64,000 bases of DNA from the IMG/VR virus record IMGVR_UViG_3300024268_000010; one strand, written 5' to 3'. A model generated the notes under the pieces. That model saw only the letters and a list, made by a program, of their open reading frames with translations, was not told the DNA's origin and ran no database searches. Positions 26,636 through 59,467 of this stretch are shown here, piece after piece. How positions within the stretch are numbered: position 1 is the stretch's first letter; each line of letters starts with the position of its first letter. Source of the DNA: a virus. Its lineage: Duplodnaviria > Heunggongvirae > Uroviricota > Caudoviricetes. Made by a program: the position numbers and the translations under genes.

Positions 26636-26673
26636 AATGGTAGTTTACAATTTGTTTACAATTGCAACTACCA
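26636..26673 (-). terminator. terminator hairpin whose loop carries two tandem GTTTACAATT boxes
   Basis: ATGGTAGTT ... AACTACCAT 9-bp inverted repeat followed by ttttatttat on the - strand; the loop holds two GTTTACAATT copies 11 bp apart. Confidence 0.45.
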
Positions 26674-26678
26674 TTTTA

Positions 26679-26848
26679 ATGTTTTATTCTTTTGTCATGC
26701 TATCAATACGTTGAATTTCTTTTCTGATTTCATCCAAGATGTTTTCATAGTGTCCTCTGGATACAATCCATTGACCATTTATATAAAGGTCATATACACC
26801 ATCTGCTCTTTGTTTTACTTTTGCTTCAAATACAGTTGCATTGCTCAT
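26679..26848 (-). CDS. small hypothetical protein (56 aa)
   Basis: MSNATVFEAKVKQRADGVYDLYINGQWIVSRGHYENILDEIRKEIQRIDSMTKE; the ligase stop provides the ggag RBS. Confidence 0.35.
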
Positions 26849-26852
26849 CGTA

Positions 26853-28781
26853 TTAATCTCCAATCATCATTAAAAATTCATTTTCTGTAATAATAGGTAT
26901 ATTTAACTCAATCGCTTTTTTATATTTACTGCTACCACTTTGTTCGTTTGTGATTAAATAATTTGTATTTTTACTGACTGATCCGGTTGTTTTTGCGCCG
27001 AGTTCAACAATTTTTGTGTTAATACTATCTCTTGTAAAATGGGTAAGTTTTCCTGTCACGCATAGTATTTTTCCACTGAATGGATTCTGTTTCGTCACAG
27101 TCTTCGTCGGCACAACAAACTTCATCTCCGACGCTAAATCAACGATTTCTGCCTCATTGTCAATGAAATACTTAGTAATATTTGCACACGTCTTATCACC
27201 AATATCCTGTAAGTCTGACCAATTGTATCCGTTCTTAAAAGCACTAAGTAATTGCTCAAAATCACCGTTAAATGCTTCCGCAATAGTTTTGGAAGCAGAT
27301 TTACCTACTCCGTCAATAGACAAAGCACATATAAAGTTTTCAAGTTTTACATCCCTGCTCTTTTCAATTGATTCAAGCAATTTATTTACTGACTTGTCTC
27401 CAAATCCATCAAGCTTAATCATATCTGCTTTGTTGACATCCAAATAGTAAATGTCAACAAACTTAGTCAGCCAACCAAGTTCGATAAACTTTTCAAGAGT
27501 CGCCTCGCTTAACCCTTCGATATCCATTGCGGGCTTGGATACAAAGAACTTCAATCTACCCAATAATTTGCCTAAGCAGTTGATGTTTTTGCACATAAGT
27601 ACTTCGGACTCATTCTCTTTCACGACTTCAGTTTTACCACCACAAACTGGGCATTGCTTAGGATAAGTTATAGGAGAATCGCCATCCTGGAGGCAAGAAT
27701 CAATCTGAGGAATGATTTGGTTGGCTTTATACACTTTCACGGTACAATTATTCGTGAGTCCTAACTTCTTAATAATAGAAATGTTATGGAGGGAAGCTTT
27801 ACTAACATCAGTACCGTCAATATTAACTGTTTCAAAAATTGCCGTAGGAGTAAGAGTGTTTGTTTTGCCCATTGTCCATTCAATATCAAGCAGTTTCGTT
27901 TCGTAAAGTTCGTCGTAGAATTTATAAGCTAATCCTCCGCAGAAGTGGTGATCCGTTCTACCCATTAATTCATATTCAACAGGGTTATCTAACTTAAACA
28001 CCAGTCCGTCAATTGGATAACTATAATCTTCTGCAACCTGTTTTAGGCACATTGTATCCTCAACAACATGATATAAACCTCTTAAAAGCGGAACGACAGT
28101 AAAGGAAAGATTTCTGAGCCAAGCCAATACTGCACGCAGACTATTTGACTTAGGGTTTCCAATCACATCCCACGCCACAAATGTCAATTTTCTCTTGGCG
28201 CATTCGTTGCTATCAAGAAGTCTAATGCTTCCAGAAGCGAAGTTTCTAGCATTCTTATATTCGCTTTCAAATTCCTTAAAGTCGTCAAGTTTACAAATGA
28301 TTTCGCCGTCAACTACAAGCCTATCAGTATACGGAATTTTCTTTGGAATCGAAGGAATAACCATTGCATTGTGAGTAATATCCTCACCAATCTCACCATC
28401 CCCTCGTGTTTCTGCTCTTACCAGCCTACCATTTTCATACAAAAGCGAACATGTTAAACCGTCCATCTTTAACATAGCAATCCAATCTTTGTCTCCAACA
28501 AAAGATTTGATCTCTTCAATATCCTTTGTCTTGTCCAGAGATAGCATAGAATGGTTGTGCTTAACCTTCGGCAGTTCATTAACGACAGTATAGTTTACTT
28601 TTTGAGTTGGTGAGTCAGGCATAGTATATCCCCATGTGTGTTCCAATTCGACAAGTTCAAAATACTTATCGTCCCATTCTTTATCAGAGATTTCTGGAAT
28701 ACCTTTGTCATACAATTCTGTATGTCTATTGAGTTCTTTAGTAAGAAATTTAATGCGTGCATATGCGTCAAGTTTTTCCAT
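26853..28781 (-). CDS. ligA: NAD+-dependent DNA ligase
   Basis: KxDG adenylation motif (LKMDGLTCSL), zinc finger CPVCG, C-terminal BRCT-like region; start taken at MEKLD with the RBS aaggag. Confidence 0.9.
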   Translation of the reverse strand: MEKLDAYARIKFLTKELNRHTELYDKGIPEISDKEWDDKYFELVELEHTWGYTMPDSPTQKVNYTVVNELPKVKHNHSMLSLDKTKDIEEIKSFVGDKDWIAMLKMDGLTCSLLYENGRLVRAETRGDGEIGEDITHNAMVIPSIPKKIPYTDRLVVDGEIICKLDDFKEFESEYKNARNFASGSIRLLDSNECAKRKLTFVAWDVIGNPKSNSLRAVLAWLRNLSFTVVPLLRGLYHVVEDTMCLKQVAEDYSYPIDGLVFKLDNPVEYELMGRTDHHFCGGLAYKFYDELYETKLLDIEWTMGKTNTLTPTAIFETVNIDGTDVSKASLHNISIIKKLGLTNNCTVKVYKANQIIPQIDSCLQDGDSPITYPKQCPVCGGKTEVVKENESEVLMCKNINCLGKLLGRLKFFVSKPAMDIEGLSEATLEKFIELGWLTKFVDIYYLDVNKADMIKLDGFGDKSVNKLLESIEKSRDVKLENFICALSIDGVGKSASKTIAEAFNGDFEQLLSAFKNGYNWSDLQDIGDKTCANITKYFIDNEAEIVDLASEMKFVVPTKTVTKQNPFSGKILCVTGKLTHFTRDSINTKIVELGAKTTGSVSKNTNYLITNEQSGSSKYKKAIELNIPIITENEFLMMIGD

Positions 28782-28924: not shown

Positions 28925-29443
28925 TTATTCTCCAATCACATTAATCTGACACATTTTCATGACTTCGAGTGCGTGTCTATGACTCTCTGGAGTTACACAA
29001 GCACAGCAACTTGCGTCTACAGTGATGTTTGCGTCTGGGAACTGTGCTTTAAGCATAATCGCGTTTGATACTACGCAGATGCTTGTACAAGTACCCACGA
29101 GCTCAATGTTTTCAAAATCGCCCTCATACTCCCAATAACGATAACCGAAGGTGGTTTTGTTAATATGGCGACATTCTGGGTGCGACAATTCATCCACAAC
29201 AAGCCAGCCATATGTTCCGTGTACACAATGTTCAATCGGAAGGTGTTTGCCCTCGTTAGTTTCTAAATAATTAAATTTATGCGTGTCTCTTGTAAAAATT
29301 ACTTCATCACCACGAGCTAAATATTCATCAATCTTCTTTTTGACATTTGGAATGATTGCTTGTGCGTATGGATTTGCAAGTGTACCTGTCAAGAAATCAT
29401 TCTGCATATCTATTACAATTAAAGTTTTCATATTATTCTCCAA
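28925..29443 (-). CDS. isochorismatase-family hydrolase, PncA-like nicotinamidase
   Basis: IVIDMQNDF (Asp), a conserved Lys, and catalytic Cys in GTCTSICV; 172 aa. Confidence 0.6.
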   Translation of the reverse strand: MENNMKTLIVIDMQNDFLTGTLANPYAQAIIPNVKKKIDEYLARGDEVIFTRDTHKFNYLETNEGKHLPIEHCVHGTYGWLVVDELSHPECRHINKTTFGYRYWEYEGDFENIELVGTCTSICVVSNAIMLKAQFPDANITVDASCCACVTPESHRHALEVMKMCQINVIGE

Positions 29444-29675
29444 TCTTGATATTTTTTATCTGCACCTCAGTAAGTTCAGTAACCTTAAACGGGTCTCTCT
29501 GGTCTTCTCGTTCAACTTCTTTTATAACAAAAGTTATGTCTTGATGACTAACGTTCTTTATATTATTTGCGCTTAAATAATTGCAAATGATTTCCATAAC
29601 TTGCACTGGCGTTAGACTTATAGTTGCATTTAATTTCATATCAAATACCTTCCTTGATTCTATAATCAACTGCAT
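29433..29675 (-). CDS. hypothetical protein
   Basis: 80 aa ORF between the PncA-like and pncB genes. Confidence 0.4.
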   Translation of the reverse strand: MQLIIESRKVFDMKLNATISLTPVQVMEIICNYLSANNIKNVSHQDITFVIKEVEREDQRDPFKVTELTEVQIKNIKIGE

Positions 29676-30834
29676 TTTTCAAATATGTGATGTAGTCATT
29701 GTTTTGGCACATGGTTTTGCCGGGCACATCACTCAATTTTGCAACTGGATGTCCATTAACATATTGCAATTTAATAACAATATTGATAGGGTTGACATTA
29801 GTATCGTTACTTAAATAAGTACCAATCCCAAAACTTACATTGATTCTGTCTTTAAGTACATCATAAATACTCTGTGCCTTGTCAAAATCCAGACCGTCGC
29901 TAAACAGTAATGTTTTCGTTTTAGGATCGATTCCAAGTTTTTCGTAATGAGCAATCAATTTTTCTCCCCACTCAATCGGATCACCACTATCATGTCTTAC
30001 ACCAGTATAACAAGTTGCTTGAAGTCTATTAAAGTCCATAAGAAACAAGTCTGTGCCAAGTGTGTCAGTAAGTGCAGTGCCGAGATCTCCTTGATATTCA
30101 TCGAACCATTCATCCATTGCCATCTTATTTGTATATGCAAGAGTTACACCAGGAATACCTTGAAACATTTGTACATATTCGTGAGCATATGTACCAATAG
30201 GCTTGCACCCATACTTCATTGCAAGATATACATTAGAAGTACCAACACACTTGCCCGTTAAAAGAAGACGTTCGACCGCAAAATCTTGGAACTCTCTACT
30301 TAATCTTCTACGGCAACCAAATTCCGCAAAATTAAATGTATATTTTCCTGTGTTAATATTATGCATTTTATGAAAGAGTTTTATAACCGCAGAATCCAGA
30401 AGTTCATCATAATCATATTTCATTCTAAAATATACTTCATTCACAATTTCAAGAAGATAGATTTCAAACTGCATTACGGAAAACAGTGGTCCATCAACTT
30501 GAAGATTGAGCGTGCCGTCTGGGTTGCCGTGACAAGTGACATATCTACGAAGAGGGCGCCAGAGACGAAGGAATTCCACATAGTCAGATTTAATAAACCG
30601 AAGTGAATTTAGATAATCAAGTTCTTCGTCGGTAAATGTAAGTGTACAAAAGTGGTCAATCTGTGCATTGATTTCATCAACCATTTCAGGAGTAAATTCA
30701 ACATCTTTATTACGACATTTGAAAAGATAAACACCATTTAAATTAGTATGTTTATGAAACATTACCTGTCCCATTGTAAACTTATATAAATCTGTATCCG
30801 TCAAATGCGTAATAATAGGGCTAAGTTTCATCAT
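29641..30834 (-). CDS. pncB: nicotinate phosphoribosyltransferase
   Basis: Strong similarity to E. coli PncB along its length: DTDLYKFTM, GVRHDSGDPIEWGEKLIAHYEKLGIDPKTKTLLFSD, NIVIKLQYVNGHPVAKLSDVPGKTMC. Confidence 0.85.
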   Translation of the reverse strand: MMKLSPIITHLTDTDLYKFTMGQVMFHKHTNLNGVYLFKCRNKDVEFTPEMVDEINAQIDHFCTLTFTDEELDYLNSLRFIKSDYVEFLRLWRPLRRYVTCHGNPDGTLNLQVDGPLFSVMQFEIYLLEIVNEVYFRMKYDYDELLDSAVIKLFHKMHNINTGKYTFNFAEFGCRRRLSREFQDFAVERLLLTGKCVGTSNVYLAMKYGCKPIGTYAHEYVQMFQGIPGVTLAYTNKMAMDEWFDEYQGDLGTALTDTLGTDLFLMDFNRLQATCYTGVRHDSGDPIEWGEKLIAHYEKLGIDPKTKTLLFSDGLDFDKAQSIYDVLKDRINVSFGIGTYLSNDTNVNPINIVIKLQYVNGHPVAKLSDVPGKTMCQNNDYITYLKNAVDYRIKEGI

Positions 30835-30849
30835 TTTTTCTTTTTCCTT

Positions 30850-31398
30850 TCATTTCTTTTGATGTTGGCAAATATTCTTAAACATTGTCTTAAAACCGCA
30901 TTCTTCGTCAACTTTTAAGCAATAAAGAATAATTTCAATATAGTCTTTATCGTTTTCGTGCATTGCACGAGGAAGTTTTATTTTATTAGTCCACCACTTA
31001 TATTCTGCATCATATGAAAAATTCTTTCCCATATAGGCTCTTGCTGCACCAAGATAATCACAAAGCATTTCTACTTTATATTTCCAAGGCATTTCAACTG
31101 GATGCCCACCTTTGTCAAAGTTATCTTGCCAATATTCATAGTGATGCGGATTACGACCCTTATGGTGCATCCAAGCCATAGACACTCCATTTTCTTCCTT
31201 ACATGCGTCAATGGGTGATCGAGTTCCACTATAATATTTTACACCTTCCCAGAATTCAACTGGAGAAAATTTAGACATATCATGCCACAAACCTTGCCAA
31301 CCACGACCACATTTGCACATATAATACCAAACCCAAAATTTGTGTTTGATGATTGTTTTAAGATGTCCAAAGAATCTCTTAAAAAAATTCATAACCAA
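30850..31398 (-). CDS. hypothetical His/Trp-rich protein
   Basis: 182 aa, MHHKGRNPHHYEYW; no family recognised. Confidence 0.45.
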   Translation of the reverse strand: MVMNFFKRFFGHLKTIIKHKFWVWYYMCKCGRGWQGLWHDMSKFSPVEFWEGVKYYSGTRSPIDACKEENGVSMAWMHHKGRNPHHYEYWQDNFDKGGHPVEMPWKYKVEMLCDYLGAARAYMGKNFSYDAEYKWWTNKIKLPRAMHENDKDYIEIILYCLKVDEECGFKTMFKNICQHQKK

Positions 31399-31469
31399 AC
31401 TCCTCTTTCTTTTACCTTACTACATTATCATTATGCCCTCACGAAAATCGCAAGGGCATAAATTTCATT

Positions 31470-32396
31470 TTAACCGATTCCTTTAAGAATGGTTGTGTCA
31501 CTACCAACAACCTCCGGCAATTTGCCATCCCAGTTATCGGCATATGTTTTTTCAATAAGTTTGTCTGTAATCGACTCAGAAATCTTCTTGTTAGCTTCTG
31601 CCTCTGCTTCAGCAGCAATTCTCTTTGCCTCTGCTTCAGCTTCTGCTTTGATAATCGCCTGTTCTGCATTAATGCGAGCGACTTCTTTTTCAGCCTCTGC
31701 TTGTTTCAAAGCAACTTCTTTGTCTTTCTGAGCCTGAATCAAAGCAGTTTTCGCCTCAATCTCTGCAAGTTCAAGTTCCTGTTGTGCCGTAACTTTTTTC
31801 TGAATCGCCTGTGCGGTTTCCTCGTCCACAGAAATGTTAGTAAAGTTAACAGTATCAATAATAATTCCATAAGCAGCAAACTTTTCTCGGAGATATACAT
31901 CAAGTTCTGCATTAATTTGTGTTCGTTTATCGCCAAAAATATCTGTTACGGGATAATTCGCAGATACTTCCTGTGTCCATGCAACCACCTTGGGTTTGAT
32001 AAAAGTATTTTTAATTTCCTCTCCTGAACGACCCTTAAATAACGTAAATGTTTCTGTTAGTCTTTCAGCATCAAATTTATACGAAAACTCAAGATCCACT
32101 TTCACTGTTTTGCCATCAGATGTAGGAATGCTAAAACTTTCATCTGTCTTTGAGTCGCCTTTGTTATCTGCTGTTAAATAAGATTGTTCAAGCCCAATGG
32201 AATATGTAGTTACTTTTTTTGTAGGGGAAACCACATGCCAACCCTGTGACAATGTTTTTTCTTCAATGCCACCTCGCATATTGTAGACAACACCTGCATA
32301 ACCAGCGTCTATTTTTGCAGTGCACATAAACACCATTACAATTGCCAAAACAAGAATTACCGCCAAGACAATACCACCAACCAAACCTTTTTTCAT
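31470..32396 (-). CDS. SPFH/band-7 (prohibitin/flotillin-like) membrane protein
   Basis: N-terminal TM helix followed by an SPFH core and an Ala/Glu-rich coiled coil; start taken at MKKGLVGG with the RBS ggag. Confidence 0.75.
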   Translation of the reverse strand: MKKGLVGGIVLAVILVLAIVMVFMCTAKIDAGYAGVVYNMRGGIEEKTLSQGWHVVSPTKKVTTYSIGLEQSYLTADNKGDSKTDESFSIPTSDGKTVKVDLEFSYKFDAERLTETFTLFKGRSGEEIKNTFIKPKVVAWTQEVSANYPVTDIFGDKRTQINAELDVYLREKFAAYGIIIDTVNFTNISVDEETAQAIQKKVTAQQELELAEIEAKTALIQAQKDKEVALKQAEAEKEVARINAEQAIIKAEAEAEAKRIAAEAEAEANKKISESITDKLIEKTYADNWDGKLPEVVGSDTTILKGIG

Positions 32397-32397
32397 A

Positions 32398-32553
32398 TTA
32401 TTGCTCCTTTTCTTTATTCTCTTCAAACATTGCTTCTTTTGCATCAATAAATAATCTGCTGAAAAATTTACCAATTGGTCTGTACAAAAATGCACACAAA
32501 AACCACAGCAGACATACACCAAGAAAAACTAATAATAAAAATACGGGATTCAT
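32398..32553 (-). CDS. small membrane protein (51 aa)
   Basis: MNPVFLLLVFLGVCLLWFLCAFLYRP...; RBS aggaga. Confidence 0.3.
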   Translation of the reverse strand: MNPVFLLLVFLGVCLLWFLCAFLYRPIGKFFSRLFIDAKEAMFEENKEKEQ

Positions 32554-32658
32554 TTACATCTCTCCTATCTTATCGTTTGCGTCTTCTTGACGCCACAACC
32601 ACACCAAGAACAAAAACAATCACAAGAGTAATAGCAAACGATGTTAAACTCAAATATA

Positions 32659-33411
32659 TCATTTGTTACCTCTTTGTCTCTTTAGTTCGTCAACAACACG
32701 TTGTGCTTCTCTGTTTTGCTCCGACTGTCTCATTCTGTTCTCTGCGGCCTGAGCACTCGTATCATATGCGATCTTACTACCCTTTGCTCTTTCTCTTGTT
32801 TTCTTTGCACCTTCACGAACACGTTCCAGCATTCGATCGCTTTCACTGTTAAGTGCAAGATTGTCAAGAGATTGGTGAAGTTCAATCATTTGGTGATCTG
32901 CCTCAAGCTGAAATACAACTTGTTCTTTTTCTTCTCGAAGTTTTCTCAACTCCACTGCCGCCTGATCTCTCACTTCTTTTTGATGCTTCTGCGCTTCTTT
33001 CATTTCGGCAATTGTGTCCTGAAGAACTTCAATTTTGCTTTCCAGTGTCACCAATCTATTTGCATAATACAGTGCGTCTTCATCATTACTACCATCAACA
33101 CACAAGTTTAATTGCTGTTTGGTCTTCATAACATCTTTTTTTACTTGATACAAATCTTTTTCAGTGGTATCCACTTTACCAGAAATATCAGCATAAGTAG
33201 CAGACGCTCTGTTGTAAAATTCTTCTTTCTCACGAATGGCCGCATTATAATAATCTTTCGCACCCTCTGGCGTTGAGGCATCTTGCCTCATAATTTCATC
33301 TGTTCTTCCTCTAAATTTAACAAGCAACTGTTGCAAAAACGGCTTATTAAAAATCAAAAGAAAAACAAGTACAATGAGTAAAACTCCAATTAAAATTCCA
33401 ACAACAGTCAT
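32659..33411 (-). CDS. membrane-anchored coiled-coil protein (PspA/LemA/TelA-like stress protein)
   Basis: N-terminal TM helix (VVGILIGVLLIVLVFLLIF) followed by a long charged coiled coil; sits next to the TerD genes. Confidence 0.45.
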   Translation of the reverse strand: MTVVGILIGVLLIVLVFLLIFNKPFLQQLLVKFRGRTDEIMRQDASTPEGAKDYYNAAIREKEEFYNRASATYADISGKVDTTEKDLYQVKKDVMKTKQQLNLCVDGSNDEDALYYANRLVTLESKIEVLQDTIAEMKEAQKHQKEVRDQAAVELRKLREEKEQVVFQLEADHQMIELHQSLDNLALNSESDRMLERVREGAKKTRERAKGSKIAYDTSAQAAENRMRQSEQNREAQRVVDELKRQRGNK

Positions 33412-33422
33412 ACATTTACTCC

Positions 33423-34004: not shown

Positions 34005-34014
34005 TTTATTCTCC

Positions 34015-34587: not shown

Positions 34588-34603
34588 ATTTACTTCCTCC
34601 CTA

Positions 34604-35182: not shown

Positions 35183-35188
35183 ATTCTT

Positions 35189-37839: not shown

Positions 37840-37867
37840 ATTATACTGATATTTTCAAATTTGTCAA
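37840..37867 (-). promoter_or_regulatory. canonical TTGACA-16-TATAAT promoter followed by the TACAATCCAAAATGATTGA leader
   Basis: On the - strand: TTGACAaatttgaaaatatcagTATAATagaatTACAATCCAAAATGATTGAATG; an AATTGTAAAT box lies about 20 nt upstream of the -35. Confidence 0.55.
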
Positions 37868-37901
37868 TATATTACTGAAGTTATTTACAATTTGTTAATA
37901 A

Positions 37902-38930
37902 TTATATCTCACCTTTAACAATTCTCTCATTAACAGACGCCACGAACTCGTTAATTTTGTTGTAATCCGGGTTATCTGGTAACTCTGTTGTCTGCTTTGC
38001 CTTGTCGAGTCTTGCTTCTAGCTCATCTACAATCTCAAAAAATTCTGGGATTGGTTGTCTATTTTCGTCAAGATATTTACCATTACGAATATCCATAAGG
38101 AAATCATGATCTTTTTCTCTGTATGTAATAATTTCTCCATTGTTAAGAATATCAAGGCACATCAGATAAAGACGAACCAAATGCATCATGTGCTTCGACA
38201 GCTTGCCGTGTTCGATGGCATTCTGATTGCGTTTACCAATCTTGCCGTATTCTTTGACAATATTGTTCATTACAGACCACATACACTTATAATCTCTAAG
38301 AGGATAATGCTTGAGATTGACATCCATAAAGATTTCACTCTCGTACTCTTCCGACTCAGACTTGTCGATATAGAGTTTAATTGCGTCGTCATCGTATGTG
38401 AAGTATCTGGTCTTGAAATCATAGGATGCGTTTTCAATGCTATTCAGAATATGACGTTCCTGCTCCGTTTGAGATACCAATCTTGCAGCCTTATTGTCGA
38501 GACGACGTAATTGAGCATTAGCATAACCTCCAAATGAATGAACACAACGCTTTGAAAGGAATAAATGACGATGATCAAGTAATTCCTTACCTATCGGAGA
38601 GAGGTAGATATAATGTTCTGGCTTGCAACCTAATAGTTCAATTGTATTTGGATTCACATTTGTCAGAAGGGAAATCAATTTATTAAAACTATAAATTGTA
38701 GTATCAGTATCCTCGTTGACGAACTGCTCAAAATTCTTATTTGTTAAGATTTCATCTTTTGCATTTAATGCACAGCCACGGATATCAACATCAGACCCTT
38801 CCACATTAGTTCCATATGCATGACTTCCACCAAGAGTAAGAAGAATGATATTGGGACCGAGATGCTCGTTGGTTCTAAGGAAATTATATTCCGGCGTTTG
38901 TATTAGAGTTTTAATTTCATTAATTGTCAT
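37902..38930 (-). CDS. Pol-beta-superfamily nucleotidyltransferase (paralogue A)
   Basis: GGSHAYGTNVEGSDVDIRG, a GS...DxD nucleotidyltransferase motif. Confidence 0.5.
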   Translation of the reverse strand: MTINEIKTLIQTPEYNFLRTNEHLGPNIILLTLGGSHAYGTNVEGSDVDIRGCALNAKDEILTNKNFEQFVNEDTDTTIYSFNKLISLLTNVNPNTIELLGCKPEHYIYLSPIGKELLDHRHLFLSKRCVHSFGGYANAQLRRLDNKAARLVSQTEQERHILNSIENASYDFKTRYFTYDDDAIKLYIDKSESEEYESEIFMDVNLKHYPLRDYKCMWSVMNNIVKEYGKIGKRNQNAIEHGKLSKHMMHLVRLYLMCLDILNNGEIITYREKDHDFLMDIRNGKYLDENRQPIPEFFEIVDELEARLDKAKQTTELPDNPDYNKINEFVASVNERIVKGEI

Positions 38931-48524: not shown

Positions 48525-48552
48525 ATTATAGCATATATTTTTAAAATGTCAA
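48525..48552 (-). promoter_or_regulatory. canonical TTGACA-16-TATAAT promoter followed by the ACACAGCAGAATGATTGGAGG leader
   Basis: On the - strand: TTGACAttttaaaaatatatgcTATAATataaACACAGCAGAATGATTGGAGG; an AAATGTAAAT box lies upstream. Confidence 0.55.
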
Positions 48553-48582
48553 TAATTACATTGATTTATTTACATTTTGTTA

Positions 48583-48608
48583 ATAAAAAAGGAGAGATTA
48601 CTCTCTCC
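48583..48608 (-). terminator. terminator after the endolysin gene
   Basis: On the - strand: ggagagagtaatctctcc followed by ttttttatta. Confidence 0.5.
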
Positions 48609-52000: not shown

Positions 52001-53560
52001 TTAAACAATGTCCTTAACTGCGTCCTCGATAGCTTGATATCTTTCGACATTAAGCACATCGAGCAAACATTCGTAAGGATCAAGTTTGTTAGACATCACC
52101 ATTTTGACAATGTTAACACTAAATCCACTAACAAGGGCAACGCCGAGGCCATTTTCTTTGACAGGAATGGTACCGGTGCGAGAATTTACATTCCAGAACA
52201 CAAGTCTAGGGAGCTTGTATCCATGTGCTTCGTACTTCTTAGCAATCGTCTCAAAGAGTGTTGCCGTAGGAGCTTCACGATATGAATACCAGCCACTAGA
52301 GCGAGTGGAATTTGTGGTGGCACAAGAGTCAAATTCCATATCAGACACGATAAGAATATTAGTAGGAATATCCTCCTGGGCCATATGGTTATTCACTGCC
52401 GTCTGAAGAATCAAATCAAATACTGCCTCAATATTAGTGTTTGCACACTCATTGTGTCTCAGAGCAATACCCAACTTATCATGAAGAGTCTTGGCGTTGC
52501 TAAAGTCAACAAACTGTGGTCTTTCACTAAAGGTGATATACTTATCCTTAAACTCACCAGAAGCTCTTTCAGCAAAATAAATAGCAAGAGCATTGGCAAC
52601 ATCAAGAGCAGTAACACTAGTCTGACCACCAACATTGACAGTCATGCTGCCGGAACCGTCTGCGACAACAAGTGTATTGCCATTGCCATTCACTGTGTCG
52701 GGCAGAGCTTTCCACATACCCTCAAGTGCGGCGTCATGTAATCTAACGGACTGACTCCACATACCACCAGACATGTACTTATGCACAATATCATGAGGAA
52801 ACAAAACAGAAGCATTAATCTTAGCCTCGCCTTTTTCAAGCGCACCAAGATATGCTCTACGACGCTCCTCATCGTTGCAAAGGAATGCATTGTTGTAAAT
52901 AAGATTTGCACGAGAAGGAACGGCCTCATAATTGATTCTACCCCATTCTCTTGCAGACATCTTACATTCAACCACGTCAATATACTTACGGAGTTTAGAG
53001 AGCATCTTACGATAGTTCTTTGATGTCATGCCAAGCCCATTGCGAATGATAGTTGCATATCTCTTTGTTTCCTTGGAAGACGCATTCTCTGAAGGAAGCC
53101 ACTTTCCAATAAGAGAGATAGATTTATTGTTCTCCATGTTAATTCTGTCTTCACCAAGCTGTTCTGCGACACCAGCAATGATGTTCTGCTTCAAATCTGT
53201 ATCAAGAAGACACCACATATCGTCGTATCTACCATATTCAGATGTAAACTTCAGCACTGCCTTGATTACCTCAGGCTTATTCTGAGCAAGGTGCTTAAGC
53301 ACGATTCTAAACAGTCTTCTTTCGCCAAGACCCTCACGGCAGTCTCTAGTGTAAAAGAGCCACTTGATTGCCACAATAGGATCTTCCCAATAAGCGTCCA
53401 TAAACTTATCGATAATCGTCTGTTCCAAAGCGCCTCTGAGAGAAGCAACGGAGAAGTTAAGATCAAGCAGTTTCTTGCCTGTGCTTTTAAATCCAACAGC
53501 ACCATTTTCGGTCAACTGCTTTTCGTTGTTAAGTTCATTTTTCATTGCATTCATAAACAT
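52001..53560 (-). CDS. vWA-domain protein (about 519 aa; DUF2828/TROVE-like architecture)
   Basis: MIDAS LVVADGSGSMT; start taken at MFMNAMK with the RBS ggagga. Confidence 0.5.
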   Translation of the reverse strand: MFMNAMKNELNNEKQLTENGAVGFKSTGKKLLDLNFSVASLRGALEQTIIDKFMDAYWEDPIVAIKWLFYTRDCREGLGERRLFRIVLKHLAQNKPEVIKAVLKFTSEYGRYDDMWCLLDTDLKQNIIAGVAEQLGEDRINMENNKSISLIGKWLPSENASSKETKRYATIIRNGLGMTSKNYRKMLSKLRKYIDVVECKMSAREWGRINYEAVPSRANLIYNNAFLCNDEERRRAYLGALEKGEAKINASVLFPHDIVHKYMSGGMWSQSVRLHDAALEGMWKALPDTVNGNGNTLVVADGSGSMTVNVGGQTSVTALDVANALAIYFAERASGEFKDKYITFSERPQFVDFSNAKTLHDKLGIALRHNECANTNIEAVFDLILQTAVNNHMAQEDIPTNILIVSDMEFDSCATTNSTRSSGWYSYREAPTATLFETIAKKYEAHGYKLPRLVFWNVNSRTGTIPVKENGLGVALVSGFSVNIVKMVMSNKLDPYECLLDVLNVERYQAIEDAVKDIV

Positions 53561-53899
53561 TTGATTGTCCTCCAAAATTGAATTTTTATAAAACAATCCA
53601 AGACACATTTGGTTATATAGATTAAAAGTCTATTCCAGTTAAGATTGCTGTCTGTGTCTTAAGATATCGTTTACATACGAGATACCATAATTGTAATTAA
53701 TTTAAACTAGGTTTAAATTGGCTATTGTCAGTCAATGCCTAAAACACAAGTATATTCCGCTTGGCATAACCGCGAATTAATTTCATCACTTACTATAATG
53801 TTATTAAAATTGCTGTAGGTATCTCTTTGTTAAGCAAGACGCATTTAACTTCAATCCCACTTTGAATTATATAAAATTGCTGTGTGCGTCTTTAAATTA

Positions 53900-54028
53900 T
53901 GGTTGAGAGGGTTGGATTCGAACCAACGAGGCACAATGCCGATGGATTTACAGTCCAGAACATTGCTGCGTAGTCTCTATCAAGACTAACATAAGGCTCC
54001 ATTGCGTTTACCACTTCGCCACCTCTCA
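53900..54028 (-). tRNA. tRNA-Tyr (GTA)-like gene carrying an insertion of about 43 nt between the D-arm and the anticodon loop
   Basis: Perfect acceptor TGAGAGG/CCTCTCA, D-arm GCGAAGTGGTAAACGC, anticodon CUGUAAA with TCCAT, Tyr-type variable arm, T-arm and CCA. The inserted block is flanked by a TGGA direct repeat and holds its own hairpin TAGTCT/AGACTA. Confidence 0.45.
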
Positions 54029-54036
54029 TTATTTGT

Positions 54037-54154
54037 TGCACGGAGTAGGATTCGAACCTACGGCACCAGGCACCCGAACGCATTGTAAATTTGCAGTTTA
54101 GGTTTATGTCTAAACCCAATTATTACTGTGCTCTACCAGCTGAGCTATCCGTGC
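54037..54154 (-). tRNA. tRNA-like gene with an expanded central region of about 45 nt; anticodon unresolved
   Basis: Perfect acceptor GCACGGA/TCCGTGC, D-arm GCTCAGCTGGTAGAGC, T-arm GTAGG-TTCGAAT-CCTAC; the insert contains the hairpin GGTTTA/TAAACC and a TTTACAAT box. Confidence 0.4.
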
Positions 54155-54162
54155 ATATTAGG

Positions 54163-54290
54163 CGGGAAGGGCAAGATTCGAACTTGCGACCAACGGCTTA
54201 GCAGGCATTATCGTTAACATTGCTGTGTACGGCTTTACCAAGTCGCATTGGTTGATGTTTACGTTGCTCTACCAACTGAGCTACCTTCCC
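54163..54290 (-). tRNA. tRNA-like gene with an expanded central region of about 55 nt; anticodon unresolved
   Basis: Perfect acceptor GGGAAGG/CCTTCCC, D-arm GCTCAGTTGGTAGAGC, T-arm GCAAG-TTCGAAT-CTTGC; the insert has an AAGCCGT direct repeat. Confidence 0.4.
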
Positions 54291-54338
54291 AGGTCTCGAT
54301 GAATCAATCATTTTGTTGTGTATCATCATCGTGAATTT

Positions 54339-54367
54339 ATTGTACCATACTTTATTTGATTTGTCAA
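54339..54367 (-). promoter_or_regulatory. promoter P2 (TTGACA-17-TACAAT) immediately upstream of the 54.3-53.9 kb tRNA cluster
   Basis: On the - strand: TTGACAaatcaaataaagtatggTACAAT, then the ACACAACAAAATGATTGATTC leader, which runs straight into the tRNA. Confidence 0.5.
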
Positions 54368-54382: not shown

Positions 54383-54410
54383 GTTTACAAATCGTTTACA
54401 TTTGTTTATA
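54383..54410 (+). repeat. three direct GTTTACA/GTTTATA repeats at 10-11 bp phasing (iteron-like)
   Basis: GTTTACAAatcGTTTACAtttGTTTATA lies between tandem promoters P1 and P2. Confidence 0.45.
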
Positions 54411-54438
54411 TTTTGGATTGATTTCCTATTGTGTTATC

Positions 54439-54467
54439 ATTATAGCACAATCATTTTGTTTTGTCAA
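54439..54467 (-). promoter_or_regulatory. promoter P1 (TTGACA-17-TATAAT) with the AACAAAATGATTG box inside its spacer
   Basis: On the - strand: TTGACAaaacaaaatgattgtgcTATAAT; an AATTGTAAAC box lies about 20 nt upstream. Confidence 0.5.
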
Positions 54468-54503
54468 GTACTATTTGTAAGCGTTAACATTTTGTTTACA
54501 ATT

Positions 54504-54746
54504 TTACTCTTCGTCATTAGGACTCTGATCTACAATGAAGTCTTTAATGCACATATAAATGTCTTTTGAACAACTTACATACAAATCTGCCCAACACATT
54601 CTTGCCGTAGCAGTAAACATCAAAGACTTCGCCGTAACTCTGCTTCCAAGTCCGTCCTCGATAAATACATCTTCCGGCACGGTCGATACATTTTTAACAA
54701 ACTGAGCAATGTCATTCATTGTTTCTAAGTAAATTTTCTGTCTCAT
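54504..54746 (-). CDS. small hypothetical protein (possibly HPr-like fold; weak)
   Basis: Start taken at MRQKIY with the RBS aaaggag; a ...AKSLMFTATA... block is reminiscent of HPr, but no phospho-His is evident. Confidence 0.35.
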   Translation of the reverse strand: MRQKIYLETMNDIAQFVKNVSTVPEDVFIEDGLGSRVTAKSLMFTATARMCWADLYVSCSKDIYMCIKDFIVDQSPNDEE

Positions 54747-54786
54747 GCTGTTCACTCCTTTCTCAATCATTTTTGATTGTATGTTC

Positions 54787-54814
54787 ATTATATCATATAT
54801 TTTCCAATTGTCAA
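54787..54814 (-). promoter_or_regulatory. canonical TTGACA-16-TATAAT promoter followed by the ACAATCAAAAATGATTGAGAAAGGAG leader
   Basis: On the - strand: two AATTGTAAAC boxes, then TTGACAattggaaaatatatgaTATAAT, then the leader. Confidence 0.55.
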
Positions 54815-54829: not shown

Positions 54830-54850
54830 GTTTACAATTCGTTTACAATT
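54830..54850 (+). repeat. tandem GTTTACAATT boxes (11-bp period) upstream of the promoter
   Basis: gtttacaattcgtttacaatt. Confidence 0.5.
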
Positions 54851-54910
54851 ATACCCCAAAGGGTGTGTTCCAATGGGGTATAATAGGTAATTATCACCGA
54901 TAGGGTGTAA

Positions 54911-57900
54911 TTATAGAGTGGTTTTTCGAAGAGATTTCGTATCGTGCAGCCACTGTTGATAAGTCTTTAACTTTTCTACAAACAAATGGTTATCTTCTTT
55001 TCTTCCAAGAATACATAAACAACTGCCTTTAACAACAAAATCAGAATACTCTTTCAGCTGTCTACTCCAAATTGTACCCTCAACAATTTGATTGTTGATA
55101 CACAAGTCGATATATGCAAATGGATTGTTATTTTTATCTTTTTTTCGCTTAATGTCAACAATAACACATGGCACTATCGCTTTATCTCCATCGGGAATGT
55201 CATCCCATTCAATACCAATACGCGCATATGCTTCTTGTAAAGGGTTATCAGTAATAAACATAGACAAACTTTGAAATTCCCACAAAAACTCATCCTGTGC
55301 ATATTGCTCCTTAAAGTCTTGCATGTGCTTAGTGTACTTTTCTTTTTGTTGTTTTTCAAATAAGTCTTTCTTCTTCTGATTATAGATTGCCAAAACTGCG
55401 GTCTTATCTGTCTTTTTGCCAACTCGATAATCGTTAACATCAATTTCCCACTCGGTAAGTAACTTCAGCTTTGTCGGCAAAGAAGACACAGGAGTATATT
55501 CCTTAAATGTAAAGAGTGACTTAGCATATCTCTGCATCAATTTCATTTTATCACTAACTGGGAATGCCCCCGCTTTAATCAAAGCAATTGTGGCGGTTTT
55601 ATCTTGAACCTTTGCTAAAAAATCATTAAAACTAGAATACGGCTGATTCTCAATAATTTTAGCAATTACAGACGATCCAATACCTTTAACTGCACCAAAC
55701 CCAAACAGGATTTCTTTTTTGTCTGGATGTGCAGTAAAGCTATCACTAGATTCATTAATCTTTGGAGGAAGTACATTAACTTCTAGTCTGTGACAATCAT
55801 TAATAATTGAACTCAACTTTTCAGTTCTATCTGATTTTGCCGTCAATAGTGCAGTCATAAATTCAACAGGATAATAAACCTTCAGCCACGCCGTCAAATA
55901 AGACAACAAACTGTACGCGACAGCGTGCCCACGATTAAAACTGTACTCTGCTTGCTTCGATATTAAAGCCCACACATCTTCAATCTGTTGTTCTGTCCAC
56001 TGTTTACTGTCTAAACCATCCTTAAATTCTGTATATAAGGACGCCATCACATCTTTCTTCTTTTTTCCAATTGCACGTCTTGCGGTATCTTGCTTTTCTT
56101 CTGGAAACCCTGCATAGGCAAACAGATGGAGTGCGTCTTCCTGGTATAAGAGAATTGAGTGTGTTTTCTTGAACAACTCATCTAAGTCTGGATGAATACT
56201 CTTTATCTCCTCTGGATGTAATTTGTTCTTGCAATAATCGGGAAAACTATCTTTTGTGCCTGGTCTATTACTTGCATTAACAGCGATAACATCTTCTATG
56301 TTATCAACATGTGCATTAATACTCATTGTCCTTGCTTCTTGTGATTCAAACTGGAAAATACCAATTGTGTTACCAGAACTATAAACCTCATCGAATACTT
56401 TTTTATCATCAAGATTTAAGTGGTTAATATCAACATCTTTCCAAGTCAAACCAGTCAACCTCAAAGTGTCATCAACAATGTCCAAATTCTCCAATCCCAG
56501 ATAGTCCATCTTACAATACCCAAGAGAATCCATCGCTGCATGCATTTCCAATTGTGCCATTACATTTTTGTCGTTGTCAAGACACAGAGGCATATGTTCT
56601 ATGACCGGGTGTGGTGTAATTAAAGTAGCACTTGCGTGTCTACCTCTCGACTTAGGAAGCCCCTCAAGTTCCATAACATACTTAAACCACAAAGGAAACT
56701 GCTTATATATCTTGTCGAGCTTTTCATTTTTACCAACCAACTCTTTAAGCAACACTTCTTTTTCTTCTTCTTCACCAAGGTCACTTAAAGTTTTAACGGT
56801 AGGTATCATCTTGGCAACTTCATCCCTCATAGAATAAGAAATCTGCCCAAAATAAGGACTACTCTCTTTCTCGTTAAGAACCTTGCCAATATCTTTAATG
56901 GCCACTTTGGTACTCAAAGTATTAAATGTAGCAATTGGTGCGACATTCTCCTTACCAAACAATTCCTCAGTTAGCTCAATTATTTCTTTTCTTCTTCGTT
57001 TACTAATATCCCAGTCGAAGTCTGCAAGGCTACCAATACGACCCATGTTTGCAAAACGAGAAAAGTCCAAATCCCAACGCACACTATCAATCTGAGTAAC
57101 GCCAAGCAAAAATAAACATAAGCAATTTGCTCCTGATCCTCTAGAGTAACCCCTTGGCAACTCTCTTTTATCTGCTTCTTGAGCAATCATATACAACATG
57201 ATAAAATAGTCCGTATAATCTAAAGCATTAATGACCGGTAACTCCCGCTCAAGTCTATCTCGTCTAATTTTCTGATCCTTTGTAGACATCCAACCAAACT
57301 TTTCATCAAAAGATTTAAAAACCAAGTAATGAAGATATTCTTCGTGAGATGAGTATTCTGCTGGTACATCTACAACTGGTGTAATACTACCATGCCCAAC
57401 ACCATAATCAATGTTATCATCAACCATGTTGGCAATTTTTACAGTTTCGTCAATGCCTTTCTGAATAACCTCTTGAGAATTCCATCCACTCAAATATTGA
57501 TATACATCTTTTTCGGTTTGCAAATGACATCCTGCATAAATTTCTCCTGCTTCACGACCCTCTCCAATTTCAACAAAAATAGAATGAGTATCAAGTTGGT
57601 CTGCATTTAACATATGTGCGTCAGTAGTAATAACATATGGAAGTCCATTATCTTTTGCAAAATTATAAATTGCAGTATTGCATGACAACTGTTCCTCGGT
57701 AGGATGTGATTGAATCTCAAGTGATACATAATCAAATGTATCTTTAAGTAAATCAACATACTCTTTCGTTTCTTGAACTTTTCCATTCTCAAGATATCTA
57801 CTCACACGCCCTGCTTGACAAGCAGTAAGACAAATAATACCCTCTCCAAGATTATTGTTATTAATCCAAGAGATAGATACCCTTGGCTTTCCATAGAATC

Positions 57901-58240
57901 CAGTTGTTGCAGCCTCACTTACAATCTTGAATAAATTTTTAAGACCTTGTTGTGTTTTAACAATTAACAATAGGTGATATCTTGGCTGTTTATACTCTTT
58001 AGTGTCTTGCTTTTCTAGGTAGTTGTCTACCTCATAAATCTCACAAGCCACAATGGGTTTAACTCCATGTTTGTTACACAACTCTACTTGATTGACAAAC
58101 CCATGCATAGTCCCATGGTCTGAAACTGCAATAGCCGGCTGATTGTTGTCAGCAGCATATTTAACAATTTGCTCTACTGTTAAAATAGAGTCTAACAATG
58201 ACCCAAGTGCTGAGTGCACATGCAAATTAACAAAACTCAC
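54911..58240 (-). CDS. dnaE: DNA polymerase III alpha subunit (DnaE-type, N-terminal PHP domain)
   Basis: 1109 aa from a GTG start (SFVNLHVHSALGSLLDS PHP motif); polymerase core and OB region; RBS aggagg. Confidence 0.85.
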   Translation of the reverse strand: MSFVNLHVHSALGSLLDSILTVEQIVKYAADNNQPAIAVSDHGTMHGFVNQVELCNKHGVKPIVACEIYEVDNYLEKQDTKEYKQPRYHLLLIVKTQQGLKNLFKIVSEAATTGFYGKPRVSISWINNNNLGEGIICLTACQAGRVSRYLENGKVQETKEYVDLLKDTFDYVSLEIQSHPTEEQLSCNTAIYNFAKDNGLPYVITTDAHMLNADQLDTHSIFVEIGEGREAGEIYAGCHLQTEKDVYQYLSGWNSQEVIQKGIDETVKIANMVDDNIDYGVGHGSITPVVDVPAEYSSHEEYLHYLVFKSFDEKFGWMSTKDQKIRRDRLERELPVINALDYTDYFIMLYMIAQEADKRELPRGYSRGSGANCLCLFLLGVTQIDSVRWDLDFSRFANMGRIGSLADFDWDISKRRRKEIIELTEELFGKENVAPIATFNTLSTKVAIKDIGKVLNEKESSPYFGQISYSMRDEVAKMIPTVKTLSDLGEEEEKEVLLKELVGKNEKLDKIYKQFPLWFKYVMELEGLPKSRGRHASATLITPHPVIEHMPLCLDNDKNVMAQLEMHAAMDSLGYCKMDYLGLENLDIVDDTLRLTGLTWKDVDINHLNLDDKKVFDEVYSSGNTIGIFQFESQEARTMSINAHVDNIEDVIAVNASNRPGTKDSFPDYCKNKLHPEEIKSIHPDLDELFKKTHSILLYQEDALHLFAYAGFPEEKQDTARRAIGKKKKDVMASLYTEFKDGLDSKQWTEQQIEDVWALISKQAEYSFNRGHAVAYSLLSYLTAWLKVYYPVEFMTALLTAKSDRTEKLSSIINDCHRLEVNVLPPKINESSDSFTAHPDKKEILFGFGAVKGIGSSVIAKIIENQPYSSFNDFLAKVQDKTATIALIKAGAFPVSDKMKLMQRYAKSLFTFKEYTPVSSLPTKLKLLTEWEIDVNDYRVGKKTDKTAVLAIYNQKKKDLFEKQQKEKYTKHMQDFKEQYAQDEFLWEFQSLSMFITDNPLQEAYARIGIEWDDIPDGDKAIVPCVIVDIKRKKDKNNNPFAYIDLCINNQIVEGTIWSRQLKEYSDFVVKGSCLCILGRKEDNHLFVEKLKTYQQWLHDTKSLRKTTL

Positions 58241-58275
58241 TACTTTTATCCTCCTAATCATTGTGTTGCGTAATT

Positions 58276-58305
58276 ATGATAATACCAAAGTACCTAATTT
58301 GTCAA
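58276..58305 (-). promoter_or_regulatory. promoter (TTGACA-18-TATCAT) followed by the ACACAATGATTAGGAGG leader, for dnaE
   Basis: An AATTGTAAAT box lies upstream of the -35. Confidence 0.4.
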
Positions 58306-58339
58306 GATACTTTGGTATTAATTCACATTTTATTTACAA

Positions 58340-59467
58340 TTACATTGCTATAACCAATTTTTCACTGGCACGTGTCATACCTGTGTATAGCCAACGCAAA
58401 TATTGCTCTCGATCATTGCCTAAATATTCATTGAAAAGAACAACTTTTTCATACTGGCTGCCTTGGCTTTTGTGAACAGTGGTACAATACGCATAATCAA
58501 ATTCCATCGGTCTGATTTCCTTTGGATACATCTTCCAATTATCCTGATTTACCGTTGGTTTACCATCTACAAACAACTTGTAGTCCATACTCAAGTCCAC
58601 AAACCAATCATTATAATCTGTATCAAAATTGGCAACCATTTTTGGCTTTAAATAAAAAGTATCTTCCTTTCTAATATTGCTAATCGTTCCAATTGATCCA
58701 TTAACCAAATCACCAACAGCCCACTGGTTTTTAAGACAAATGCATTTATCTCCATTAATCGGTTCGTCAACATATCGATTTCCCCAATGAGCACGTCTAA
58801 TACGATTATTTAATGAAAATCTTGTTACATTCTTCCCACACAAAACCATATCTGCCGTCACAAGCAACTTATCAGCAATATTATCCTTGGGTACAATGCG
58901 TACATCCTTACCCTTGAAGTAATTTAAGTACTTACCTTCTCGTACATCCATAGATAACCGAATAATTTCACTATCTTGAGCTTGTCGCATAATTTCATCG
59001 AGAAAGATGTGAGGATGTTGCAAAACTCCATTGTCCTCTGCGATAGGAGGTAATTGAAATGGATCTCCTAGGCATATGATATGAATACCCCACTTCATCA
59101 AGATGTCCCATTGAGATTTTTCTAACATCGAAACTTCATCTATTACGATTAGTTTAAGTGCTTTTTCTGGCTTCTCTCTTGGAGTATGTACGAAGGTACC
59201 ATCTGGTAATTCGGTTGTGTGATACAAAAGTTTGTGTGCTGTTGTTGCATCTGGACAACCTTTGTTTTTTAAAACTAACGCTGCCCTACCAGTATATGCT
59301 ACATACGCTATTTTGTTTTTTGGAATATTAAGTTCTTGGATAATAAATTGCACAAGAGTAGACTTTCCAGTGCCTGCAAACCCGGCTATTACTGTAAATG
59401 GTTCCTTATTCTTATATCTAGAAATTGCCAATCTAAGACCTTTTTCTTGCTTGTCAGTTAATATCAC
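58340..59467 (-). CDS. SF1 DNA helicase (Dda/RecD-like)
   Basis: Walker A AGFAGTGKST; DEVSM Walker B; a C-terminal RecD-like SH3/2B region; 375 aa. Confidence 0.75.
   Translation of the reverse strand: MILTDKQEKGLRLAISRYKNKEPFTVIAGFAGTGKSTLVQFIIQELNIPKNKIAYVAYTGRAALVLKNKGCPDATTAHKLLYHTTELPDGTFVHTPREKPEKALKLIVIDEVSMLEKSQWDILMKWGIHIICLGDPFQLPPIAEDNGVLQHPHIFLDEIMRQAQDSEIIRLSMDVREGKYLNYFKGKDVRIVPKDNIADKLLVTADMVLCGKNVTRFSLNNRIRRAHWGNRYVDEPINGDKCICLKNQWAVGDLVNGSIGTISNIRKEDTFYLKPKMVANFDTDYNDWFVDLSMDYKLFVDGKPTVNQDNWKMYPKEIRPMEFDYAYCTTVHKSQGSQYEKVVLFNEYLGNDREQYLRWLYTGMTRASEKLVIAM

Follow-up and report, generated by a model that had tools for sequence, protein, structure and literature searches.

The subject of this study is a tandem 11-bp box that precedes promoters in a 64-kb stretch of DNA (hereafter the window) from the Caudoviricetes record IMGVR_UViG_3300024268_000010 of IMG/VR. 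We characterise the source as a large, gut-type phage infecting an anaerobic Firmicute; the window had no megablast match among 50,697 phage records. All genes from 15.2 kb on lie on the - strand, among them a gene for a DnaE-type polymerase (54911-58261) whose product is 47% identical to DnaE of Clostridium phage Amboise, the closest isolate by protein. Further genes of the window encode the anaerobic ribonucleotide reductase NrdD/NrdG, a large serine recombinase, TubZ, an amidase endolysin and seven tRNAs, and many genes are of the host-takeover type.

Tandem boxes at seven promoters of the window

Seven - strand promoters of the consensus sigma-A type carry a perfect TTGACA and are named here by the position of its first T (58305, 54814, 54467, 54367, 48552, 37867 and 26627). 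Each of them is preceded by two head-to-tail 11-bp units, which, aligned on TTGACA, have the consensus nAAWTGTAAAY. The repeat unit is AATTGTAAAC, and the core of the 22-bp site reads TGTAAA-N5-TGTAAA. At all seven promoters the 3' end of the proximal unit is separated from TTGACA by an invariant gap of 15 nt. Neither the sequence of this gap nor the DNA upstream of the distal unit is conserved across the seven promoters, and a degenerate third unit occurs at promoter 54367 alone. Besides the terminator-like hairpin that encloses the boxes of promoter 26627, a hairpin lies immediately upstream at promoters 54814 and 48552 too. The genes behind the box promoters have early/middle-type functions (Table 1). 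No boxes were found at three other good promoter matches on the - strand (23073, 17262 and 13828).

Chance repetition does not account for the boxes, which form a real, precisely positioned and conserved cis-element of these promoters. Six copies of the exact 10-mer GTTTACAATT are present in the window compared with 0.59 expected, and none of 100 shuffles reached six; five copies lie on the + strand (26643, 26654, 54494, 54830 and 54841) and a lone copy on the opposite strand (21807). Copies with one mismatch, verified at 37883, 54383, 54394 and 58332, are not significantly enriched (18 in the window, 13.8 expected), and the signal therefore lies in the arrangement. The pattern TGTAAAY-N15-TTGACA with at most one mismatch gave nine matches for 0.66 expected, a number reached in 0 of 100 shuffles, and seven of the nine are the promoters described here. 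When both strands were scanned with a position-weight matrix (PWM), the seven sites came out on top with 17-31 bits, although these scores are circular because the matrix was trained on the same sites. The next best score, 14.4 bits, belonged to a TTTACA -35 box read backwards, and the scan revealed no further tandem site in the 64 kb.

Such a scan had been proposed in a preliminary description of this DNA, several details of which are revised here. Both tandem pairs of GTTTACAATT copies 11 bp apart exist, but the first is located at 26643/26654 rather than at 26642/26653. The copies taken to be single (37883, 48568, 54494 and 58332) are in fact paired with a degenerate unit, namely TAATTATTAAC, TTTTTATTAAC, AAAATGTTAAC and AAAATGTGAAT, respectively. 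The copies at 26643-26664 do lie within a terminator hairpin (26634-26677), but partly in its stem and not in the loop only. An array of three GTTTACA repeats had been placed at 54383-54410; the repeats are there (54383..54415), with a third unit that is degenerate. Instead of 20-25 nt, the distance to the -35 element is the constant 15 nt. The co-occurrence with an AATGATT leader was confirmed at all seven window promoters, and in related phages the leader accompanies 51 of the 68 non-redundant sites.

This leader motif, ACAAAATGATT(G) on the - strand, is an element separate from the boxes. Two of its copies fall inside the spacer between -35 and -10 (54449-54455 and 23055-23061), and at places without a promoter the motif stands immediately ahead of ribosome-binding sites or of a tRNA-like gene. 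Sister phage clades have AATTATT, AATTAAT or AATGAAT at the equivalent places. This variation between phage clades suggests a phage-specific partner or a role at the RNA level; the motif may be a clade-specific operator or a signal for RNA processing or translation.

Table 1. Box promoters of the window, copies of the leader motif and related features on other contigs
Feature	Position	Strand	Remarks
Tandem boxes TAATTGTAAAT + AAAATGTGAAT	58321..58342	-	upstream of DnaE promoter; tandem PWM 23.5 bits
Core promoter TTGACA-N18-TATCAT	58276..58305	-	drives DnaE (54911-58261)
Tandem boxes TAATTGTAAAC + GAATTGTAAAC	54830..54851	-	tandem PWM 30.5 bits; terminator-like hairpin upstream
Core promoter TTGACA-N16-TATAAT	54787..54814	-	drives 94-aa open reading frame (ORF; 54504-54788), without a Pfam or PHROG match
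Tandem boxes AAATTGTAAAC + AAAATGTTAAC	54483..54504	-	tandem PWM 28.8 bits
Core promoter TTGACA-N17-TATAAT	54439..54467	-	AATGATT within spacer; one of two promoters for tRNA-like genes
Boxes CAAATGTAAAC + GATTTGTAAAC, degenerate third unit (…AATATAAAC)	54383..54415	-	tandem PWM 26.6 bits
Core promoter TTGACA-N17-TACAAT	54339..54367	-	drives insertion-bearing tRNA-like genes
Tandem boxes TTTTTATTAAC (degenerate) + AAAATGTAAAT	48568..48589	-	TTTTTATTAAC overlaps terminator T run; tandem PWM 17.3 bits
Core promoter TTGACA-N16-TATAAT	48525..48552	-	drives 88-aa ORF, then RNA-ligase-type genes
Tandem boxes TAATTATTAAC + AAATTGTAAAT	37883..37904	-	tandem PWM 24.3 bits
Core promoter TTGACA-N16-TATAAT	37840..37867	-	drives P-type cation ATPase gene (35189-37819)
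Tandem boxes CAATTGTAAAC + AAATTGTAAAC	26643..26664	-	tandem PWM 31.0 bits
Terminator-like hairpin enclosing both boxes, then U run	26634..26677	-	RNA fold -19.2 kcal/mol, z -4.98
Core promoter TTGACA-N16-TATAAT	26600..26627	-	drives 5' part of split C5 DNA methylase gene
AATGATT at box promoters	58256-58262, 54765-54771, 54449-54455, 54306-54312, 48505-48511, 37818-37824, 26580-26586	-	
Other AATGATT copies	51986-51992, 49386-49392, 38942-38948, 23055-23061, 17944-17950, 17430-17436	-	
Tandem box before rpsB, Clostridia	L111 7025-7045, L123 6374-6394, L130 460-480, L141 2385-2405		four different genomes
Tandem box (A/T)TTGTGGTA, phages	L025 17150-17200, L027 21390-21437, L028 21190-21240	+	2-3 copies upstream of TTGACC promoter
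Reverse-orientation tandem boxes, viral contig	L007 904-960		directly upstream of TTGACA promoter
Reverse-orientation tandem boxes, viral contig	L005 8285-8330		overlap promoter spacer and -10
DUF6291 helix-turn-helix genes	L270 459-845, L285 10192-10581, L321 2487-2870, L330 1528-1908, L333 3573-3974, L125 3197-3583		

Occurrence of the box in phages and bacteria

Among 79 loci with DnaE homologues (47-84% identity, about 1.7 Mb), the box was found in this architecture in L032 only. The closest relatives (L024, L093 and L094, with DnaE 82-84% identical) have terminator and promoter modules without boxes, and therefore conservation at syntenic positions could not be used as a test. Twenty-three IMG/VR contigs contain the exact tandem box. 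On five of these the whole cassette recurs, with its 15-nt gap and AATGATT leader, and one of the five, L010, shares 70-79% nucleotide identity with parts of the window.

The cassette, which consists of two boxes, N15, TTGACA, N16-17 and TATAAT and is usually followed by the ACAAAATGATT leader, was searched for with the pattern TGTAAAY-N4-TGTAAAY-N15-TTGACA. The 98 IMG/VR stretches obtained were reduced to 68 non-redundant sites, with up to nine or more on a single contig; the phage contigs that bear the cassette are 65-173 kb long. Three features that were not part of the search pattern are conserved in these sites: a -10 element within one mismatch of TATAAT (63/68), a spacer of 16 or 17 bp (67/68) and AATGATT downstream (51/68). 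Moreover, the positions of the boxes that had been left free in the search proved to be conserved, with AAT before each core and an A between the units in 55 sites. A third unit is absent. The cassette is confined to one clade and missing in the sister clades, which makes it a hallmark of a single phage clade.

The boxes might be functionless passengers of a duplicated promoter/terminator cassette, since terminator, boxes, core promoter and leader are shared modules that could have spread together by recombination. However, the gap and the upstream sequence have diverged while boxes and register were kept, at all seven window sites as well as at the 68 sites of the relatives, and the element is independently present in bacterial chromosomes. 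We regard this explanation as hardly credible.

Other tandem boxes were observed in further viruses. A clade with 73% identical DnaE carries a different box with a period of 11 bp, (A/T)TTGTGGTA (Table 1), which is an analogous architecture of other specificity. Unrelated viral contigs of low G+C content have two to four tandem boxes in reverse orientation, and the arrangements in L007 and L005 indicate that the element is used in other geometries outside this phage clade.

In a collection of bacterial genomes, the exact 21-mer AATTGTAAAC-N-AATTGTAAAC was found on 76 contigs. Forty-four of these are labelled Clostridia (Acutalibacteraceae, Oscillospiraceae, Ruminococcus, Lachnospiraceae, Eubacteriales) and four Bacilli. 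Six of the bacterial loci lie in a context of 0.56-0.62 G+C. By our own estimate, chance would account for a few occurrences of the 21-mer at most, and for well below one in the six G+C-richer loci. Promoter-like pairs of -35 and -10 elements follow the box after 13-16 nt at 13 of 77 sites, with a peak of seven at 15 nt compared with about one per offset elsewhere. Overall, the bacterial box is found in both orientations and 0-19 nt from the -35 element.

Among the host genes, rpsB is preceded by the box in metagenome-assembled genomes (MAGs) of four different Clostridia. At these sites the box is followed after 14-15 nt by a weak -35 element (TTGAAA, TTGCAT, TTGCTT or TTGAAT) and, after a further 17-18 nt, by TATAAT, while the flanks have diverged. 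The four leaders share a hairpin and then AATA(A/C)ACACACA, and the upstream gene is ylmC/ymxH-like. Four independent rpsB matches among about 44 cannot be chance. A similar spacing was observed at pgm (15-nt gap, TTGACT), at an ABC ATPase gene (15 nt, TTGCAA) and at an AbrB-like gene (13 nt, TTGACA). Further neighbours of the box are rpoB, groES, citrate synthase, a DUF348-G5-3D wall hydrolase, a choline-binding-repeat protein, a subtilase, small sigma factors and lipoproteins. The presence of the identical box at the same distance in bacterial chromosomes implies that a host-encoded binder must exist.

Two further groups of bacterial occurrences differ in context. At Patescibacteria-type loci of the Candidate Phyla Radiation (CPR; L108, L114, L129, L134, L137, L140, L152, L153, L155, L158 and L166), the box has T or C between its units and is accompanied by AATTGTCAAC variants. 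It lies 48-180 nt upstream of a gene for a conserved protein of about 330 aa with an N-terminal winged-helix region and an ATPase-like region, and looks like the autoregulated operator of an unrelated system. In TnpV-carrying mobile elements of Clostridia (L103, L107, L116 and L132), the box has the opposite orientation and precedes, by 5-6 nt, a TTGACA-N16-TATTAC promoter directed into tnpV.

Candidate factors acting at the box

If transcription starts 7 nt after the -10 hexamer and the spacer measures 17 bp, the 22-bp tandem spans about -72 to -51 with its centre near -61. With start sites predicted in this way, the position agrees with the geometry of class I activators, whose sites are centred near -61.5, -71.5 and so forth and leave a gap the size of the C-terminal domain of the RNA polymerase alpha subunit. 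The class I site of CAP at the lac promoter lies at -61.5, consists of inverted repeats bound by a symmetric dimer and serves a weak promoter. The phage site resembles it in its span, in the gap of about one alpha C-terminal domain and in the strict helical phasing, whereas the phage repeats are direct and the phage promoters match the consensus.

We propose, with a probability of roughly 45%, that the box serves a host-encoded, tandem-binding factor of the WalR/PhoP type (OmpR/PhoB family) as a class I-type site and that the phage clade has copied this site. A head-to-tail (tandem) dimer of the protein would occupy one face of the helix at the 22-bp site and would contact the alpha C-terminal domain docked in the A/T-rich 15-bp gap, a gap of the size that one such domain should need between an upstream activator and sigma region 4. 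By placing the host element on many early/middle promoters, the phage clade may let its output follow or exploit host growth or envelope signalling. We infer the binding of a protein, its identity and the direction of its effect from sequence; activation is favoured as the simplest effect for this position. Since the core promoters already conform to the consensus, over-stabilisation that holds RNA polymerase, repression or titration of a host factor are possible as well. As to the parts of this proposal, the binder is probably encoded by the host, its membership in the OmpR/PhoB family is a tentative assignment that falls somewhat short of even odds, and WalR itself is an unlikely candidate.

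The preliminary description had called the box an UP-like element or an activator or repressor site. Register, orientation and spacing fit the latter, whereas the site at about -72 to -51 lies upstream of the UP position and its best-conserved positions include G and C. Without any dedicated factor, the boxes could still act as UP-like sites for alpha C-terminal domains or, as intrinsically bent DNA, strengthen the promoters. Like UP elements, they form an A/T-rich module of two subsites upstream of the -35 element of strong promoters; the two 11-bp units could correspond to the two alpha subunits, the AAA runs are phased, and in the host the box stands at very highly expressed genes (rpsB, rpoB, groES). 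Upstream curved DNA reportedly stimulates promoters of phage SP82 in Bacillus. However, UP elements abut the -35 element at -59 to -38, one helical turn downstream of the boxes, and their consensus is made up of A and T only, unlike the box with its invariant-type G and C/T among the most informative positions. The bacterial box, moreover, is found in both orientations, at variable distance from the -35 element and next to regulator genes, which is how a transcription-factor site behaves. An explanation without a dedicated factor is thus improbable.

Direct repeats of a 6-7 bp core with a period of 11 bp are the signature of winged-helix response regulators of the OmpR/PhoB family. Among these, WalR (YycF/VicR) has sites of similar sequence. 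Its consensus is TGTWAH-N5-TGTWAH with variants such as TGTTAA and TATTAA (PMC9210968, PMC4168254, PMC10746227), and WalR sites upstream of the -35 element activate irrespective of orientation (PMC10746227). Wal-responsive genes of C. difficile carry TGTAAA-N5-TGTAAA. In the window, TGTWAH-N5-TGTWAH is matched exactly at four of the box promoters (26644-26660, 54384-54400, 54484-54500 and 54831-54847), and the other three are one base off (TGTGAA, TATTAA and TATTAA). The enrichment of this pattern in the window is marginal (four matches, 1.33 expected; 5 of 100 shuffles reached four). All seven sites are placed as WalR sites are, near a sigma-A promoter and upstream of its -35 element. Both WalR sites and boxes consist of two hexamers in direct repeat with a period of 11 bp, and TGTAAA, TGTTAA and TATTAA occur in both. 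They differ in that the phage box keeps 10 of 11 positions (AATTGTAAAY), more than the hexamers, in that its position is invariant, and in that its binder is one deduced from sequence. Moreover, the WalR regulon is centred on the cell wall, whereas the neighbours of the bacterial box are partly housekeeping genes: the wall hydrolase, choline-binding-repeat protein, subtilase and lipoproteins are mixed with rpsB (four times), rpoB, groES, pgm and citrate synthase.

A candidate regulator lies beside one of the bacterial boxes. In Ruminococcus L177, an exact tandem box is located between groES and the gene for an OmpR-family regulator, about 80 nt before the start of the latter. The best NCBIfam model for this protein is YycF/WalR with 257 bits (cut-off 340), followed by MtrA and PhoB. 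Eighty metagenomic orthologues are arranged in a regulator-kinase-HtrA operon, and many of them keep TTTACA-N5-TT[ACT]A about 19 nt before the -10 element, which suggests autoregulation. As wal operons have been reported not to be autoregulated, the L177 regulator may be a WalR-like paralogue and not WalR.

PhoP boxes of B. subtilis are TT(A/T/C)ACA-N5 repeats, and promoters activated by PhoP have four or more of them on the coding strand, where they replace the -35 element. On the opposite strand the half-sites of the phage box (TTTACA, TTAACA, TTCACA) match this pattern with the same 11-bp period. The phage sites differ from pho boxes of PhoP/PhoB in having two repeats, located on the non-coding strand and upstream of an intact -35 element, and none of the 76 genome loci has a pst or pho gene beside the box. 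Phages have reportedly adopted sites of host response regulators elsewhere: Spo0A 0A boxes are said to lie at early promoters of phi29, and PhoB pho boxes before pstS/phoA of cyanophages. In those cases, too, promoters of the phage carry sites of a host two-component regulator, through which infection reads the physiological state of the host. The sequences TGTCGAA and CTGTCAT were not recognised in the box by eye, and the arrangement described here differs in the fixed upstream distance, the number of promoters and the sharing with host rpsB.

Several findings weigh against a host regulator of the WalR/PhoP type. The phages with 82-84% identical DnaE lack the boxes, and the promoters already have TTGACA/TATAAT and should need no activator. 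Conservation of the box extends past the WalR hexamers to AAT before each of them and C/T at the seventh position, where VicR of S. mutans prefers A. On the other strand, the half-sites fit the consensus of B. subtilis PhoP equally well. The L177 regulator scores below the YycF cut-off, is apparently autoregulated and belongs to a regulator-kinase-HtrA operon. Of the 76 bacterial matches, 11 are in CPR bacteria beside the unrelated winged-helix gene and four more in TnpV elements; the sequence of the box by itself therefore does not name its binder. Finally, a phage-specific helix-turn-helix protein co-occurs with the boxes.

The binder might instead come from the phage, as the preliminary description proposed: a clade-specific early protein would recognise the boxes and coordinate, or shut off, every box promoter, that of its own gene included. 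The strongest candidate is a protein of about 128 aa that combines a DUF6291 domain and a GGRP motif with a C-terminal helix-turn-helix resembling sigma-70 region 4; GTTTACA, the reverse complement of the box, resembles a -35 element. In seven or more related contigs, the gene for this protein directly follows a box promoter as the first one. When all of IMG/VR was scanned for it, 14 loci were obtained, of which the 13 full-length ones are all on contigs with box promoters and the remaining one is a partial match (52 residues, 43%) on another contig. In addition, only one phage clade has the cassette, in many copies per genome, and its sister clades lack it; the boxes also keep one orientation relative to transcription. 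The stoperators of mycobacteriophage L5 are likewise asymmetric and used in a single orientation. Repressor operators of this kind are situated in, or overlap, promoters or transcribed DNA; the boxes lie upstream of the -35 element without overlapping it, and no repressor gene was found in the window.

A phage-encoded binder does not explain why the tandem box, with the same spacing, is kept at rpsB in the four Clostridia MAGs and at further host genes, and early promoters have to fire before any phage protein exists. The DUF6291 protein was not found in this window, nor was it matched on a 139-kb contig with at least five box promoters, and its helix-turn-helix is a marginal Pfam match (24.9 bits, cut-off 25.7). 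Its co-occurrence with the boxes may reflect shared ancestry alone. No DNA-binding domain was found among about 60 proteins of the window. As put in the preliminary description, with one phage-encoded factor in control, the idea is not supported, given that bacterial chromosomes contain the identical tandem box at the same distance from promoters; a phage binder nevertheless remains a rival, if a rather unlikely one. A binder of the OmpR type encoded by the phages themselves was rejected, because 2.8 Mb of phage loci of this family encode no such protein.

Other known sites were compared with the box and rejected. A cre site of CcpA fits partially and only with G between the boxes, where 55 of 68 sites have A. 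The CodY box agrees at 11 of 15 positions by eye, with mismatches at the best-conserved G and C. Rex, TnrA/GlnR and CopY/BlaI (TACAnnTGTA) require inverted repeats, whereas the boxes are direct, and in no copy does TACA precede AATTGTA. The 0A box of Spo0A (TGTCGAA) differs from TGTAAAC/T at positions 4, 5 and 7 in all copies. A -35 element of the extracytoplasmic function type (..AAC) lacks a CGT-type -10 at 16-17 nt. A divergent or antisense promoter with TTTACA as its + strand -35 element has no -10 at 16-18 nt, and the DNA beyond the distal box is unconserved. Seven copies, every one of them tied to a promoter, are incompatible with replication iterons or packaging sites.

Searching the literature for the box sequence brought up nothing relevant; neither the box nor its invariant geometry nor the fact that host rpsB promoters share it seems to have been described. 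A bolder reading, which we consider doubtful, is that tandem AATTGTAAAC marks an undescribed growth-linked regulon of gut Clostridia that comprises rpsB, rpoB, groES, envelope proteins and the operon of the regulator, and that the clade of 65-173 kb phages copied the element onto dozens of early promoters. The lytic programme could then be coupled to the growth or envelope state of the host; alternatively, replicating phage DNA would multiply high-affinity sites and titrate the factor off host promoters. If a host regulator binds, the clade would read a two-component or growth signal of the host at most of its early promoters, which would offer a handle on infection timing in large gut phages. 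The element also suggests that ribosomal protein S2 and other core genes are under a so far unrecognised control in Lachnospiraceae and Oscillospiraceae, families for which, to our knowledge, almost no promoter biology is available. In practical terms, the 22-bp box with its 15-bp gap could provide a compact upstream module for promoters of gut Firmicutes and a marker for early promoters of the clade.

Other genes of the window

Two regions of the window (14170-17192 and 28925-42311) hold cargo that is odd for a phage. They encode a TubZ-like tubulin, the large serine recombinase, a PARP-like protein and a Macro domain, three TerD paralogues, PspA-like and SPFH proteins, a P-type cation ATPase and the NAD salvage enzymes NAPRTase and nicotinamidase. 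A divergent adenylosuccinate-synthetase-like gene at 42327-43499 (-) matches solved PurA structures with only about 50 bits and could encode a PurZ-type enzyme for modified purine DNA. In the C5 cytosine methylase gene (-), the N-terminal part (25761-26585) and the C-terminal part (23074-24636) appear to be separated by an HNH endonuclease gene (25069-25686), which suggests an intron or another mobile insertion.

Three tRNA-like genes in a row (53905-54290, -), each with insertions of about 40-50 nt, are read from two of the box promoters. Only 54037-54154 passes the Rfam threshold for tRNA (49 bits), and ARAGORN called none of the three. YrlA (Y RNA-like) was rejected as an alternative, its weak match at 54107-54211 being under threshold (25.7 bits). 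The next gene (52001-53608) encodes a DUF2828/DUF7788 protein and has RNA-repair genes nearby, and the motif ACAGCAAT is repeated across 53600-54250.

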